A program made the translations under genes and the position numbers. This document shows, one piece after another, positions 9,948 through 14,213 of a DNA stretch of 64,000 nucleotides. Below the pieces are notes generated by a model. That model searched no databases. It was not told where the DNA came from and saw only the letters and a list, made by a program, of their open reading frames with translations. The first letter of the stretch is position 1; each line of letters opens with the position of its first letter. Origin of the DNA: an uncultured bacterium (GTDB taxonomy: Bacteria > Fidelibacterota > Marinisomatia > Marinisomatales > UBA1611); the NCBI GenBank assembly GCA_965660855.1, contig CBFIBM010000008.1, positions 17,079 to 81,078 of the forward strand, read 5' to 3'.

Positions 9948-11180
9948 ATGTCAAAAGTAATCAAAAACCACTTCTTCCATCTTCCCCTTGATTATTCAAA
10001 TCCAAAATCTGAAAAAATTCAAATTTTTATTAGAGAAATATCAAGAAAAGAGCATAATAAATTACCATATTTACTTTATCTTCAGGGAGGACCTGGCTAC
10101 GAATCCCCAAGGCCAATATCTAGTTTAAAATGGATCGATTATGCATCAAAATTTTATAATATTCTTCTACTAGATCAGAGAGGAACAGGTAAAAGTACAC
10201 AATTAAACATTCATGACTTTTCTCATGAAGAAAATAATGTTGCAGTCGAAAAGATAGCACTTTACAGAGCTGACAACATTGTCAGAGATGCTGAAGAAAT
10301 TAGAAAATCACTTATTGGAAATAAGAAATGGTCTATTTTGGGACAAAGTTTTGGTGGATTCTGCTGCGTTCATTACCTTTCTTACTATCAAGATAGCCTT
10401 GAAAAGGTATTCATTACGGGTGGTCTTCCTCCTTTAAGTGCTCATCCAGATGACATTTATAGAAAAACTTATAAGAGGGTATTTGAAAAAAATCTTTTAT
10501 TTTATAAAAACTTTCCAAAAGCTCAAAAAAATGCAATAAAAATAGCAAGGTATCTACAAAAGAAAGAAACCTTTTTACCAAATGGAGATAGCCTTACAGT
10601 AAAGCGTTTTCAACAGCTTGGCCTTCAATTAGGTTTCAGCGATGGTCCTTCTAAATTAAATTATCTTTTTGAAGATGCTTTTGTAAAAGATGAGCTATCA
10701 TATACATTTTTAAAAAATATTTTTTCAGAGCAATCTTTTGATACAAATCCTTTATTTACTATTTTACATGAAGCTTGTTATGCTCAAAAATTCAGTACAA
10801 ATTGGTCTGCTCAAAGAATAAGAAAAGAATTTCAACAATTTAACGATGGTCATGATAATTTTTATTTTACCGGAGAAATGCTTTTCCCATGGATGATGGA
10901 TGAATATAAAAATTTAAAACCGTTTAAAAATATTGCTTTGGGTTTAGCTGAAAAAAACGATTGGTCAATTTTATACGATAAAAAAATACTAAATAATAAT
11001 ATTGTCCCCGTCGCTGCAGCAGTTTACACTAATGATATGTATGTTGATAGAGATTATTCAATCAGAACCGCGTCCGAAATAAAAGGTCTAAAAATTTGGG
11101 AGACCAATAAATTAGAGCACAATGGCTTAAGAAGTGACGGAATGAAGGTTTTAAAAAAACTATTTAAATTATTGAATTGA
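9948..11180 (+). CDS. pip: Proline iminopeptidase (alpha/beta hydrolase, S33)
   Basis: LQGGPG, LDQRGTG, RADNIVRDAE, GQSFGG nucleophile elbow, DMYV, EHNGLR. Confidence 0.88.
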   Translation: MSKVIKNHFFHLPLDYSNPKSEKIQIFIREISRKEHNKLPYLLYLQGGPGYESPRPISSLKWIDYASKFYNILLLDQRGTGKSTQLNIHDFSHEENNVAVEKIALYRADNIVRDAEEIRKSLIGNKKWSILGQSFGGFCCVHYLSYYQDSLEKVFITGGLPPLSAHPDDIYRKTYKRVFEKNLLFYKNFPKAQKNAIKIARYLQKKETFLPNGDSLTVKRFQQLGLQLGFSDGPSKLNYLFEDAFVKDELSYTFLKNIFSEQSFDTNPLFTILHEACYAQKFSTNWSAQRIRKEFQQFNDGHDNFYFTGEMLFPWMMDEYKNLKPFKNIALGLAEKNDWSILYDKKILNNNIVPVAAAVYTNDMYVDRDYSIRTASEIKGLKIWETNKLEHNGLRSDGMKVLKKLFKLLN

Positions 11181-11185
11181 CCTAT

Positions 11186-12664
11186 TTAAAAAATTTTATT
11201 CTCAAATGTAAGTTTGAAATTTTTGGCTTCCTTTTTGATGATTTTTTTGTATTTATTAGGACCACTATAAAAGATATGATTTTTGGTTTCAACATTATTA
11301 TTTGTTAACAATTTTAATTCTTGTTTCCAATCTGGTAGACCGAATTTTGATTTCCCCCAAATATTATTTATCAAGGTAACATTAGTTTTAGTTTTAGATA
11401 AATCAGTGGACATAAACATTAACTTTTCTGAAACTTCATGAGCAGATTTATCAATAAAAAATATATTATAAGTGAATATATTAATTTTTTCCTCTCCTTC
11501 AATTTCATTTAAAAACTTTGTAAACCATTCAAAGTATGTCTCATTTTCTATAAGCCAATAAAGACTAATTTTTTTCAAGGTTAAATTGTTTGATTTTTTA
11601 TCGAAACGCAAAGCTATATCTTGAAGAATTGGGGCAATTTTTGATATTCCGTGTCCTACACCGATTAAGATAGCATGTTCTGTGTTAAGAATATTTCTAC
11701 TTGAAGAACCATAGGGTCCATCAATTTTAAGGTTAAAATGAATGAGTTTATTTTCTTTATATTTTTCGAGAATTAATGAAAACATACTTCTAGTCCAATT
11801 ATCTATTGACTTAATATGAAGTACTAATTCACCATCTTTATTTATACGAATTATGTTAAACGGGTGCCATTCTACAGAGGATATATTTTTACAATTAACA
11901 TAAATATAATCACCCGGAACAAATTCAAAACCTATTGATGGTTTTAAAATTATTTCTAATGTCTCAGATGGTAATAAAAAAGCTGATGTAATTTCAGTAC
12001 GAATATGATTCTTTTTCCTATTCAGAAGAATATTATAATAAGATATCATCTTAGGAATTAAAATTGATTGAAAGAATCCTATTTCCTGAACTTGAATTTC
12101 TTTATTTTTTTTGTTTTTATTTAAATTTTCTGAGGCAGAAAGTCCATTATTAGATGTAAGCCATTTTATTGGATTTACAGCAAACCCCTCCATAAAATCA
12201 GGAAAATCTTTAGCGATAATTAAAAATTCATTAAAATCAATTTTATCATTTTTATCTATATCTGCCTTAAAGAAAATTTCATCAACAAGTAAAGAAAGTT
12301 GAAAATCATCAAAATCAAGATTATTCTGAATAAAACTTTGAACTATCAAAATTTTCAATTCTTTCTTATCTATAAATCCACTATTATCCAAATCATGTAA
12401 ATTAAATGCAAATTTGATTTTGTCTTTTTTACTACCAAGAATAATTGTTTCAATTGTAGATAAAAATTCATGATGATCAATCCTTCCATTTTTATCCTTA
12501 TCAAATAGGTCAAATAGTCTATCTGACAAACTCCTATTTGATACTTCGAGTCCATCAAAAAACTCTTGCTTATCAATCAATTGATCTTCGCCAGAAAGTG
12601 ATCGAAACTTATTCTTTAATTGTACAAGAAAAGGACCAGTAAGTTTATTTGATGTATTTAACAA
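11186..12664 (-). CDS. NOX5-like protein: EF-hands plus FAD/NAD(P)H dehydrogenase domain, lacking the heme transmembrane domain
   Basis: EF loops DKDKNGRIDHHE, DLDNSGFIDKKE, DIDKNDKIDFNE; PGDYIYVN, EWHPF, IDGPYG, LIGVGHGI, YFEWF, GLPDW, FYSGP; no multi-TM segment. Confidence 0.85.
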   Translation of the reverse strand: MLNTSNKLTGPFLVQLKNKFRSLSGEDQLIDKQEFFDGLEVSNRSLSDRLFDLFDKDKNGRIDHHEFLSTIETIILGSKKDKIKFAFNLHDLDNSGFIDKKELKILIVQSFIQNNLDFDDFQLSLLVDEIFFKADIDKNDKIDFNEFLIIAKDFPDFMEGFAVNPIKWLTSNNGLSASENLNKNKKNKEIQVQEIGFFQSILIPKMISYYNILLNRKKNHIRTEITSAFLLPSETLEIILKPSIGFEFVPGDYIYVNCKNISSVEWHPFNIIRINKDGELVLHIKSIDNWTRSMFSLILEKYKENKLIHFNLKIDGPYGSSSRNILNTEHAILIGVGHGISKIAPILQDIALRFDKKSNNLTLKKISLYWLIENETYFEWFTKFLNEIEGEEKINIFTYNIFFIDKSAHEVSEKLMFMSTDLSKTKTNVTLINNIWGKSKFGLPDWKQELKLLTNNNVETKNHIFYSGPNKYKKIIKKEAKNFKLTFENKIF

Positions 12665-12754
12665 TTATTTTTTCAGTATTATGATTCTATATACTAGGTT
12701 AATTTATCTTATATACTTTAATCATTAATAGAACTTTTTAAAAACGATTTATAC

Positions 12755-13708
12755 ATGATATATAATACAATTCTAGAGACAATTGGAAATACACCAGTTA
12801 TTAAAATAAATAATATTTCAAAAGAAATTGAATGTGATATTTACGTTAAATGTGAATTTTTCAACCCTGCCGGTTCTATCAAAGATCGTATCGGTTACAG
12901 AATGGTTATTGATGCGCAAAAATCTGGGAGGATTAAACCTGGAGATACCCTTATAGAACCCACTTCTGGTAATACCGGACAAGGCATAGCCTTAGCATGT
13001 GCTGTTCTGGGATATAAATGTATCATAACTATGCCAGAAAAAATGAGTCAAGAGAAGCAAATAGCCCTTGAAGCATTAGGAGCAGAAATAATAAGAACTC
13101 CAACTGAAGCAGCATTTGATGACCCTGAAAGCCATATACAAGTCGCTCAAAAGCTTCAAAAAAAAATTAAAAATTCTCATATTCTTGATCAATATGCTAA
13201 CCCATCAAACCCTAAAGCGCATTACGAAGGGACTGCTGAAGAAATCATTGAAGACTTTGGAGAAAATTTAGATATGGTTGTAATGGGTGTTGGTACCGGT
13301 GGAACAATTACAGGTGTTGCAAAACGTTTAAAAGAATTTTACTCTGATATTAGAATTATAGGAGCAGACCCTGTTGGTTCTATTTTAGGAGGAGGAAAAA
13401 AGGTTTCATCTTATTTAGTTGAAGGTATTGGTTATGATTTTTTTCCAGATGTTTTAGACAATAACCTAATCGATCAGTACATTAAGACAGAGGATGAAGA
13501 AGCATTTAAAATGTCTAGAAGACTAATAAAAGAAGAGGGGTTACTCTGCGGTGGTTCTTGTGGGTCAGCAATGATAGCAGCTTTAAAAGCTGCAAAAGGC
13601 CTAACACAAAATCAAAAAGTCCTGGTTATTTTACCTGATAGTATCAGAAATTATATGACCAAATTTCCTAATGATAGTTGGATGATTGAAAATGGATTTG
13701 AAGTATAA
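12755..13708 (+). CDS. cbs: Cystathionine beta-synthase catalytic core (PLP fold II; cysteine synthase superfamily)
   Basis: [49 protein letters not shown]; no heme or CBS regulatory domains. Confidence 0.82.
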
Positions 13709-14213
13709 AATATTCTACTTTATATTAGTTCAATCTTTAGTTTGGGGAAACTCAAATGATAACAAAAGAGGTTTTATTGTAGACATTGGTGATCCTGCTC
13801 CTGATTTTTCTATGTTACTTACAACAGGAGAAACCTTAAAATTATCTGAATTCAAAGGTTCTACAGTTATACTACAGTTTACAGCTAGCTGGTGCTCTGT
13901 TTGTAGATTAGAGATGCCACACCTTGAAAAAGATATTTGGAAAAAGTATAAAGATAAAAATTTACTCTTAATTGGTATTGATAGAGATGAACCACTTGAA
14001 ACAGTAATTAACTTTAAAAAAGAAATGAAGACAACATATCCTATTGCATTAGACCCTGGAGGTAAAATATTTAGCTTATTTGCTGAGAGAAATTCTGGTG
14101 TTACACGAAATATTGTAATTAATCAGTCTGGAGAAATTGTCTTTCTCACTAGATTATTTGAAGAAAATGAGTACAAACAAATGTTAAAAGTTATTGAAAG
14201 TCTAGTTAATTAA
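13692..14213 (+). CDS. TlpA/ResA-family exported thiol-disulfide oxidoreductase
   Basis: [21 protein letters not shown]; signal-like leader; exact start uncertain (13686/13692/13698). Confidence 0.85.

Follow-up and report, generated by a model that had tools for sequence, protein, structure and literature searches.

NOX enzymes are defined by an electron wire that runs from flavin to haem to haem across the membrane, and six transmembrane (TM) helices are described as a typical feature of the family (PMC9421330). The NOX5 proteins, for instance human NOX5 (8U85, 8U86, 8U87 and 8U7Y) and the cyanobacterial csNOX5 (5O0X), carry in addition an N-terminal domain of four EF-hands, of which EF2-EF4 are canonical and EF1 is non-canonical and described as calpain-like (PMC9421330). 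In human NOX5, Ca2+ is reported to act, inside the dehydrogenase (DH) domain, on the transfer from NADPH to FAD: the EF domain displaces a self-inhibitory EF-binding segment (REFBD) from the NADPH-binding subdomain, and the pre-TM1 helix, which forms a cap over the NADPH pocket, is loosened by Ca2+ as well, although how Ca2+ starts this transfer is described as still debated (PMC11088703). In csNOX5, two aspartates, D611 and D631, are reported to be required for Ca2+ activation, and the C-lobe of the EF domain to bind the DH domain only with Ca2+ (PMC7317449). Here we describe a natural NOX5 relative that has lost the haem domain, a protein of 492 amino acids (aa) encoded on the minus strand of a 64,000-nucleotide (nt) stretch of DNA, referred to as the window, from contig CBFIBM010000008.1 of an uncultured bacterium of the phylum Fidelibacterota (assembly GCA_965660855.1). 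It is probably, judging from its sequence, a Ca2+-switched flavin enzyme of a kind not yet described.

NOX dehydrogenases without a membrane domain have been studied in isolation. The SpNOX DH domain (8QQ1/8QQ5) is described as an active NAD(P)H:flavin and cytochrome c reductase that does not discriminate between NADH and NADPH, that reduces cytochrome c partly via superoxide and that, lacking the TM domain, has a 263-fold higher Km for FAD (PMC11031084). It matches the window protein in structure (Z 17.0-17.4) and likewise lacks a membrane domain, but it is an engineered truncation, constitutively active and without an EF-hand regulator, whereas the window protein is natural and under selection, has a Ca2+-binding domain and carries remodelled motifs. 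Fre/LuxG and the NADH-cytochrome b5 reductases share the same haem-less two-subdomain flavoprotein reductase fold, as seen in structural matches to Fre 1qfj (Foldseek E 6.2e-10) and to b5 reductases (Z ~16). However, they carry no EF-hand domain, the weak LuxG/Fre matches in NCBIfam (3e-7) stay far below the cut-offs (29.7 vs 230 bits for NF005963 and 29.8 vs 340 bits for NF052252), and the window protein is much closer to NOX5 in sequence and fold. Within the ferredoxin-NADP reductase superfamily it belongs to the branch with a NOX-type DH domain, and it does not answer to the definition of a NOX. A literature search that covered few subscription journals and no supplements found no published account of a natural TM-less EF-hand NOX relative; the NOX survey PMC3591440 is built, as described there, on the membrane ferric-reductase domain, and PMC5676040 is presented as an account of transmembrane NOX enzymes.

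A NOX5 relative without its haem domain

The open reading frame (ORF) is intact, and its TTG start agrees with the N-termini of homologues (M-L/I-N-x-S-x-K-L). Pfam places EF-hands at aa 48-151 (EF-hand_1, 2.9e-14; EF-hand_7, 7.9e-13), followed by FAD_binding_8 (1.9e-20; 73.4 bits against a gathering cut-off of 22) and NAD_binding_6 (4.6e-17; 63.0 bits against 22.2); these two scores and the two-subdomain fold identify a NOX-type DH domain, and the N-terminal domain is of the four-EF-hand type of the NOX5 subfamily, with three canonical loops and a non-canonical EF1. Pfam and the alignments thereby agree with the first-pass annotation of this DNA, made from the letters alone, which had described an intact 492-aa frame with three canonical EF-hand loops and a degenerate first one. 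All the motifs that it quoted are present at the places given for them: FPDFMEGFAVNPIKWLT at aa 154-170, FFQSILIP at 197-204, HPFN at 267-270, GVGHGISK at 335-342, FYSG at 465-468 and KIF at the C-terminus.

The ferric-reductase domain (Ferric_reduct, PF01794) gives no Pfam match in the 492-aa protein even at E<=1. In a phmmer search of the PDB, human NOX5 is the top match (3.3e-52) and aligns in collinear pieces, with query residues 16-171 corresponding to NOX5 13-168, 198-296 to 374-474 and 297-487 to 507-714, while nothing in the query corresponds to NOX5 residues ~169-373. In place of ~205 NOX5 residues, from TM1 to most of TM6, it has a stretch of ~26. No 19-residue Kyte-Doolittle window in the protein reaches 1.6 (maximum 1.21), whereas the same script finds 2-7 peaks in full-length NOX5 relatives. 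The six-helix ferric-reductase domain of the NOX family is absent, and the four haem-coordinating histidines of TM3 and TM5 are missing with the segments that bear them. Hence, TM1-TM5 and most of TM6 have been lost in frame and both haems with them; the in-frame deletion of TM1-5 with a TM6 relic left behind, already proposed in the first-pass annotation, is borne out by the PDB, family and structural alignments. As the haems are gone, the canonical electron path would be impossible, and the window protein, as its sequence reads, cannot transfer electrons across the membrane or form superoxide at an outer haem.

Compared with NOX5, the window protein shares the EF-hands, the post-EF segment, the cytoplasmic end of TM6 (W200, P204), the D-G-P-Y-G strand, the C-terminal Phe and the DH fold (FAD_binding_8 and NAD_binding_6; Z 25-26). 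It differs in having no TM1-TM5, no haem histidines and no PF01794 match, and in its replaced FAD/NAD(P)H motifs, its acidic 2'-phosphate site and its altered EF-binding region and hinge. An AlphaFold2 model built on a 26-sequence alignment reaches a predicted local distance difference test (pLDDT) score of 77.4 and a predicted TM-score (pTM) of 0.72, with low confidence in the linker and relic helix (pLDDT 41-65). Its top match in Foldseek and VIA-align is the DH domain of csNOX5 (5O0X; TM-score 0.89-0.90, Z 26.3, root-mean-square deviation (rmsd) 1.9 A, 238 of 243 residues). Human NOX5 8U85 fits with Z 25.9 and an rmsd of 5.3 A over 409 residues of model 7-492, and 8U87 and 8U7Y fit worse (382 residues each; 11.8 A and 12.2 A). 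8U85 is described as the Ca2+-free pre-reaction state, 8U87 as the Ca2+-bound IS3 and 8U7Y as the post-reaction state (PMC11088703), and the predicted docking of the EF domain on the DH domain resembles that of resting, Ca2+-free NOX5.

Conservation, authenticity and selection

A word-indexed protein search with the window protein returned 119 proteins, 112 of which (P0002-P0113; 422-507 aa, 99% to 38% identity) combine EF-hand, FAD_binding_8 and NAD_binding_6 without PF01794. In the precomputed annotation column 117/119 matches are free of PF01794, which is annotated only in P0119 and P0120. For residue comparisons, 113 full-length TM-less sequences (P0001, 111 word-search matches of 463-507 aa and P0122) were aligned and compared with 42 full-length NOX5-like proteins, 39 from an exhaustive search and 3 from Marinimicrobia loci. 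All 113 have the same domain order, and the 111 are other cluster representatives, so that the architecture first noticed in the window holds among its relatives. The exhaustive search, over 1.84 billion representatives, finds two full-length TM-less ones at 50% clustering (P0013 and P0122); the next matches are NOX5-like proteins of 630-690 aa, besides very long multi-EF-hand proteins that match the EF region only.

That the gene is an artefact or a decaying pseudogene, i.e. a misassembled or recently truncated NOX5, is so improbable that it hardly counts. Two broken copies elsewhere speak in its favour: a frameshift close to the Gly-rich nucleotide loop breaks the TM-less gene at L040:8001-9489 into two ORFs (361 + 137 aa), which is either a pseudogene or a sequencing error of the metagenome-assembled genome (MAG), and the TM-less copy of genome G307 has an internal TAA. 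On the other side stand the 111 further full-length cluster representatives, a syntenic position that is identical in 33/33 loci with enough upstream sequence (window included), and near-identical DNA in runs from six or more studies. A contig of run X13, 3,467 nt long, crosses positions 10900-13000 with 2 differences, a contig of run X12 covers 11740-13000 and an RNA-library contig of run X15 covers 11960-12185; these contigs bridge the linker (12086-12151), and no indel or joint appears in 4/4 runs compared. This evidence consists of contigs, not raw reads, and shows continuity, neither depth nor transcription; as to expression, the contigs from RNA libraries (X15, X18) give a weak hint.

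Selection was estimated as the ratio of non-synonymous to synonymous substitution (dN/dS) by NG86 on the 25 closest of 34 pairs at 70-97% identity among 33 genes, which gave 12 unsaturated estimates from pairs that are not independent. The whole-gene median is 0.084 (range 0.03-0.13), with medians of 0.066 for the EF domain, 0.051 for the relic helix, 0.088 for the FAD subdomain and 0.096 for the NAD subdomain; the polar linker, at 0.225, is the least constrained part. The gene is under strong purifying selection, and constraint on the relic helix matches that on the EF-hands. The first-pass annotation had named two findings that would undo its reading, a misassembly at the linker and relatives that all keep the TM domain while this copy shows relaxed selection. 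The former is ruled out by the contigs of independent runs, the latter by the median dN/dS and by orthologues that are TM-less as well.

Distribution, the full-length paralogue and origin

The TM-less gene is confined to one family of marine bacteria. It is present, in some cases partially, at 44/47 loci found in species-representative genomes, and the 25 locus records with a named phylum all belong to Marinimicrobia/Neomarinimicrobiota (NCBI phylum Fidelibacterota), the label also carried by the clusters of the TM-less protein in a protein atlas. Among 300 further genomes sampled from the phylum, 20/24 of the window's own family have a match, compared with 1/276 of other families, and this single match is a 664-aa full-length NOX5. 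Among all 54 genomes of the family (window included), 46 match: the TM-less form is common (44/54) and the full-length form rare (3/54), with G209 and G047 matching through full-length NOX5 only. Genus g2 (G047, G209, G177, G241) is the only genus of the family in which the TM-less gene is found in 0/4 genomes. The same genus holds 2 of the 3 full-length copies in the family, and G218 is the only genome with both forms. The two forms look nearly complementary, in small numbers and in related genomes.

Full-length NOX5 of the same phylum was found at three Marinimicrobia MAG loci (L044, L045 and L046). These proteins of 662-663 aa have EF-hands, PF01794 (1.7e-11), FAD_binding_8 and NAD_binding_6, and keep the canonical motifs F-W-K-W, H-P-F-T, G-I-G-V-T-P, F-F-C-G and E-N-F; their EF and DH modules are 27-30% identical to those of the TM-less form, whose gene lies at another locus. 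L046 and the TM-less locus L002 come from one MAG, and both forms also occur in G218. At L046:2233-9971, as in L044 and L045, the full-length gene is the last of a same-strand multihaem cytochrome c cluster, in the order 596-aa multihaem cytochrome (NapC/NirT and MtrC/F-like matches), 453-aa protein without a Pfam match, 320-aa cytochrome c554-like protein and ~500-aa multi-CxxCH cytochrome, the stop of which overlaps the NOX5 start by 4 nt. This arrangement suggests that the Marinimicrobia full-length NOX5 feeds periplasmic multihaem cytochromes (an Mtr-like conduit) and not O2.

In a DH-domain tree (65 rows, 295 columns, IQ-TREE quick, LG+G4, composition heterogeneity flagged), the 13 TM-less rows form one group with a Shimodaira-Hasegawa-like approximate likelihood-ratio test (SH-aLRT) support of 100 and a stem of 0.78 substitutions per site. 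The TM-less family has a single origin, and the simplest reading is a single deletion, after which the sequence changed fast. By score, its nearest full-length relatives are NOX5s of cyanobacteria, namely the P0126 cluster (Cylindrospermum, Planktothrix, Tychonema) and P0131 (Acaryochloris). Branching of the TM-less clade from the phylum's own NOX5 has a support of 73.6, and a cyanobacterial-type constraint is not rejected by the approximately unbiased test (p-AU 0.68).

The TM6 relic and the search for a cytochrome partner

Residues ~194-214 align with the cytoplasmic end of TM6 (F-W-K-W-L-L-V-P in NOX5), with W200 kept in 96/113 TM-less members; all of them have gained a basic residue at position 205, ahead of the N-R-K-K-N cluster. 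Over 26 diverse members the 19-residue hydropathy maximum of the relic ranges from 0.92 to 1.69, at least 1.6 in 4/26 and 1.08 in the window protein, and the helix is non-amphipathic (hydrophobic moment, muH, <=0.14 in 24/26). It is modelled as a helix at 197-213 (pLDDT ~60) and is included in structural alignments to NOX2 (8gz3, 8x2l, 8wej), the human NOX5 intermediate 8u86 and mouse DUOX1 (6wxr, 6wxv), all of which start at model residue 195-197. More likely, the relic is a monotopic anchor or is buried in the protein. The 'soluble Ca2+-regulated flavoprotein' of the first-pass annotation thus keeps its second half, a Ca2+-regulated flavoprotein being favoured; solubility does not fit as well with a relic that is hydrophobic, non-amphipathic, highly conserved and TM-grade in 4/26 members.

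The same properties of the helix, with its basic cluster on the cytoplasmic side, would suit a split NOX, in which the relic docks on a separately encoded membrane cytochrome b and rebuilds the transmembrane electron path. Bacterial stand-alone ferric-reductase-domain proteins of the YedZ type are described in PMC3591440, and a cytochrome encoded elsewhere was one of the options of the first-pass annotation. The genomes make this improbable. PF01794 is not found in the window's genome (84% complete; control genomes gave matches). It is present in 5/54 genomes of the family, three times within full-length NOX5 (G218, G209, G047) and twice as weak sub-threshold matches (G241, G290) in genomes that lack the TM-less gene. 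No PF01794 match occurs in 43/44 carriers of the TM-less gene, nor in 11/12 carriers that are at least 90% complete, other cytochrome b families not being searched, and in the single remaining carrier (G218) the match lies inside the complete 663-aa NOX5. A split NOX is therefore disfavoured, and the stand-alone ferric reductase TM gene that it calls for did not turn up. Furthermore, at none of the TM-less loci examined for gene order, the window among them, is the gene adjoined by one for a membrane cytochrome. The window's genome (84% complete) gave no match to the multihaem cytochromes that accompany the full-length paralogue (a search without positive control), and N (113/113) and I/V have taken the place of the hinge pair E/D211-R212 found after TM6 in full-length NOX5.

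Fixed replacements in the dehydrogenase

The Ca2+-coordinating residues of EF2-EF4 are kept in 110-113/113 members, and G25, D27, I30, D31, E34 and F35 of EF1 are invariant in the 26-sequence alignment and present in 112-113/113 of the family. At least 110/113 also keep P155, V163, P165, W168 and P204, the nucleotide/flavin scaffold residues W266, P268, F269, W290, G337 (110/113), G339 (113/113), A344, W370, W380, F381, P444, W446, F465, G468 and P469. The (V/I/L)xGP(F/Y)G strand is found as I-D-G-P-Y-G at aa 314-319, with D315, G316, P317 and G319 in 113/113 and Y318 in 111/113.

In contrast, sites that are invariant or nearly so in the 42 full-length proteins have been replaced throughout the TM-less family. 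In the numbering of the window protein, and with full-length counts first, H267 (42/42) is Tyr in 93, His in 17 and Phe in 3 of the 113; T270 (41/42) is Asn in 97 and Thr in 12; R285 (41/42) is Lys in 88; and G288 (42/42) is Asn in 77, Asp in 17 and Gly in 13. In the nucleotide loop, I338 (42/42) has become His in 61 and Tyr in 22, T341 (42/42) Ser in 100 and P342 (42/42) Arg in 65 and Lys in 48, followed by S349 (38/42), Asp in 112, and S377 (30/42), Tyr in 113. Towards the C-terminus, C467 (42/42) is Ser in 99 and Cys in 13, and E490 (41/42) is Gly in 46 and Lys in 39. The canonical H-P-F-T, G-I-G-V-T-P and C-G-P read HPFN, GHGISK and SGP in the window, where HPFN is a minority form of the family consensus YPFN. 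The first-pass annotation had regarded these cofactor motifs as drifted; they are instead fixed, clade-specific replacements under purifying selection, at sites invariant in the full-length NOX5s.

Replacements on this scale raise the possibility that the protein is a non-catalytic sensor of Ca2+, and perhaps of NAD(P)H or flavin, in which the DH domain is a pseudo-enzyme or ligand-binding module and signals pass by conformational change or by binding of a partner or membrane. This would explain why canonical positions are replaced clade-wide (HPFT->YPFN, R..G.WT->K..N.WS, GIGVTP->GHGIS[KR], CGP->SGP, E-x-F->[GK]-x-F), the long stem of the tree is as expected upon a change of function, and the EF-hands and relic helix are the most constrained parts by dN/dS. 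However, the Gly-rich nucleotide loop, the D-G-P-Y-G strand, P268-F269 and the C-terminal aromatic residue (96/113) are all kept, and in SpNOX the P-F pair is described as sandwiching the isoalloxazine ring (PMC11031084). Selection on the FAD and NAD subdomains is as strong as the gene average, and the replacements are conservative in kind (T->S, R->K, H->Y, C->S), not disruptive. On balance we consider a pure sensor unlikely.

One of the replacements bears on cofactor choice. In Rossmann-type folds, an acidic residue at the end of the second strand is commonly a sign that NADH is preferred. R446 of human NOX2 (in Y-W-L-C-R; chain numbering from 394) falls on E373 of the window protein when the two are aligned by HMMER, with no gaps. 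R446 is described as one of two arginines that contact the 2'-phosphate of NADPH in DUOX1 and as conserved in NOX2 (PMC11031084). Position 373 is acidic in 73/113 TM-less members (E53/D20) and basic in 12/113 (K10/R2), compared with 39/42 basic in full-length proteins (R38/K1). Glu or Asp at the 2'-phosphate site suggests that most members, the window protein included, would prefer NADH.

Gene layout and neighbourhood

The features of the gene and its neighbours are collected in Table 1. A scan for promoters and terminators found no terminator and 18 promoter-like sites, where 15.1 were expected.

Table 1. Positions in the window of the NOX5-like gene, its parts and the adjoining genes
Feature	Residues (aa)	Coordinates	Strand	Evidence or remark
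Whole gene, TM-less NOX5-like protein	492 aa	11186..12664	-	TTG start 12664-12662, stop 11188-11186; Pfam and PDB search
NOX5-type EF-hand domain	16-171	12152..12619	-	End-to-end with human NOX5 13-168, 82.7 bits
EF1 loop, non-canonical as in NOX5	25-36	12557..12592	-	Family alignments
EF2 loop, canonical	55-66	12467..12502	-	D55, D57, D63, E66 in 112-113/113
EF3 loop, canonical	91-102	12359..12394	-	D91, D93, G96, D99, E102 in 112-113/113
EF4 loop, canonical	135-146	12227..12262	-	D135, D137, D143, E146 in 110-113/113
Post-EF segment	154-171	12152..12205	-	NOX5 stretch running into pre-TM1; P155, V163, P165, W168 in 113/113
Polar variable linker (~22 aa), where NOX5 has TM1-TM5	172-193	12086..12151	-	PDB alignment, model, dN/dS
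Relic of cytoplasmic TM6 end and basic cluster	194-222	11999..12085	-	P204, K/R205 in 113/113, then N-R-K-K-N
FAD_binding_8 subdomain	225-322	11699..11992	-	HPFN (family YPFN); K-S-x-[ND]-x-W-[ST] replaces R-S-x-G-x-W-T
NAD_binding_6 subdomain	331-478	11231..11674	-	G-x-G-H-G-I-S-[KR] replaces G-x-G-I-G-V-T-P; F-Y-S-G-P replaces F-F-C-G-P
Glu373, position of NOX2 Arg446	373	11546..11548	-	HMMER alignment and family alignment
Equivalent of NOX5 regulatory EF-binding domain	404-447	11324..11455	-	Conserved well within TM-less family
C-terminal Phe492	492	11189..11191	-	Phe in 96/113; E of NOX5 E-x-F ending replaced by G/K
Alpha/beta-hydrolase gene	410 aa	9948..11180	+	Converges on NOX5-like gene; 5 nt between stops
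PALP-family (cysteine synthase-like) gene		12755..13708	+	Divergent from NOX5-like gene across 90-bp spacer
AhpC/TSA-type redoxin gene		13686..14213	+	W-C-x-x-C motif; start overlaps PALP gene end by 23 nt

The divergent pair of PALP-family and redoxin genes is kept in 33/33 loci with enough upstream sequence. Downstream of the TM-less gene lie an Hsp20 gene and then TldD/PmbA-like genes, and more than 10 genes are syntenic across the family. Only the window and its two closest relatives (L001 and L029) have the alpha/beta-hydrolase gene in this place, and no terminator-like hairpin is found between the stop of this gene and that of the NOX5-like gene. A same-strand SDR gene follows the TM-less gene in 9 other loci, and a same-strand NADPH-dependent FMN reductase (PF03358) gene follows in 7; the SDR gene is present too in 6 of these 7.

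Proposed function and mechanism

We hypothesize that the window protein is a Ca2+-gated NAD(P)H-dependent reductase, cytoplasmic and possibly membrane-peripheral, and from its sequence and the analogy with NOX5 we give this reading about an even chance (roughly 0.5). A NOX5 derivative would have arisen by one ancient in-frame deletion that took TM1-TM5 and most of TM6. The remnant, made up of the EF domain, the post-EF segment, the EF-binding region and the DH domain, would be the module that gates the passage of hydride from NAD(P)H to flavin, later remodelled and held by strong purifying selection in one marine Marinimicrobia family. Since in NOX5 the Ca2+-gated step takes place within the DH and EF parts, the step would lie wholly in the parts that the TM-less family keeps. 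Once Ca2+ binds to EF2-EF4, the EF domain would be rearranged on its DH partner, as happens in NOX5, and hydride transfer to flavin would be allowed; in the absence of a haem wire, the reduced flavin would then hand its electrons straight to a small acceptor, for which free flavin, a membrane-surface quinone, an Fe(III) chelate and O2 are candidates. What we infer are the catalytic activity, the gating by Ca2+, the preference for NADH, the acceptor and the membrane association. A narrower version, a natural haem-less NOX5 that prefers NADH, sits with its TM6 relic at the inner membrane face and reduces quinone, free flavin or Fe(III) when Ca2+ rises, is possible, if doubtful.

Several observations weigh against a Ca2+-gated reductase of this kind. 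Nearly every residue taken to be catalytic or to contact a cofactor in NOX has been replaced, so that activity may be altered or lost. An Asn in place of Thr or Ser after P-F is unusual in the ferredoxin-NADP reductase superfamily, and flavin chemistry could therefore be impaired or lost. The residues equivalent to the two aspartates of csNOX5, mapped by the phmmer alignment to NOX5 and the 20-residue spacing given in PMC7317449, are poorly kept (Asp in only 23/113 at position 430, the D631-equivalent; Asp or Glu in 64/113 at the D611-equivalent), and the coupling mechanism of NOX5 may therefore not carry over. The arrangement of the EF and DH domains is a prediction, made at the model confidence given above and with a low-confidence linker and relic. 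The case for NADH is a hint drawn from one of the two arginines at the 2'-phosphate. As to the electron acceptor, synteny over more than 10 genes makes the neighbourhood inseparable from shared descent, and it therefore offers no usable hint.

Implications

The family shows that the regulatory half of NOX5, EF-hands and dehydrogenase together, can persist by itself and be kept by selection. As this half is selected without the membrane domain, it must have an output other than transmembrane superoxide. SAR406/Marinimicrobia is a very abundant uncultured ocean lineage, and we know of no cultured representative; if the proposed function is right, this lineage has a Ca2+-controlled redox enzyme. 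The replacement of Arg by Glu at the 2'-phosphate site makes a simple prediction of a cofactor switch. If true, the proposal would also offer a soluble model, ready to use, for the activation step of NOX, and such a compact TM-less switch, if well expressed, would ease crystallography and kinetics of that step. For the biology of Marinimicrobia, the family points to cytoplasmic Ca2+ signalling that is tied to redox metabolism.

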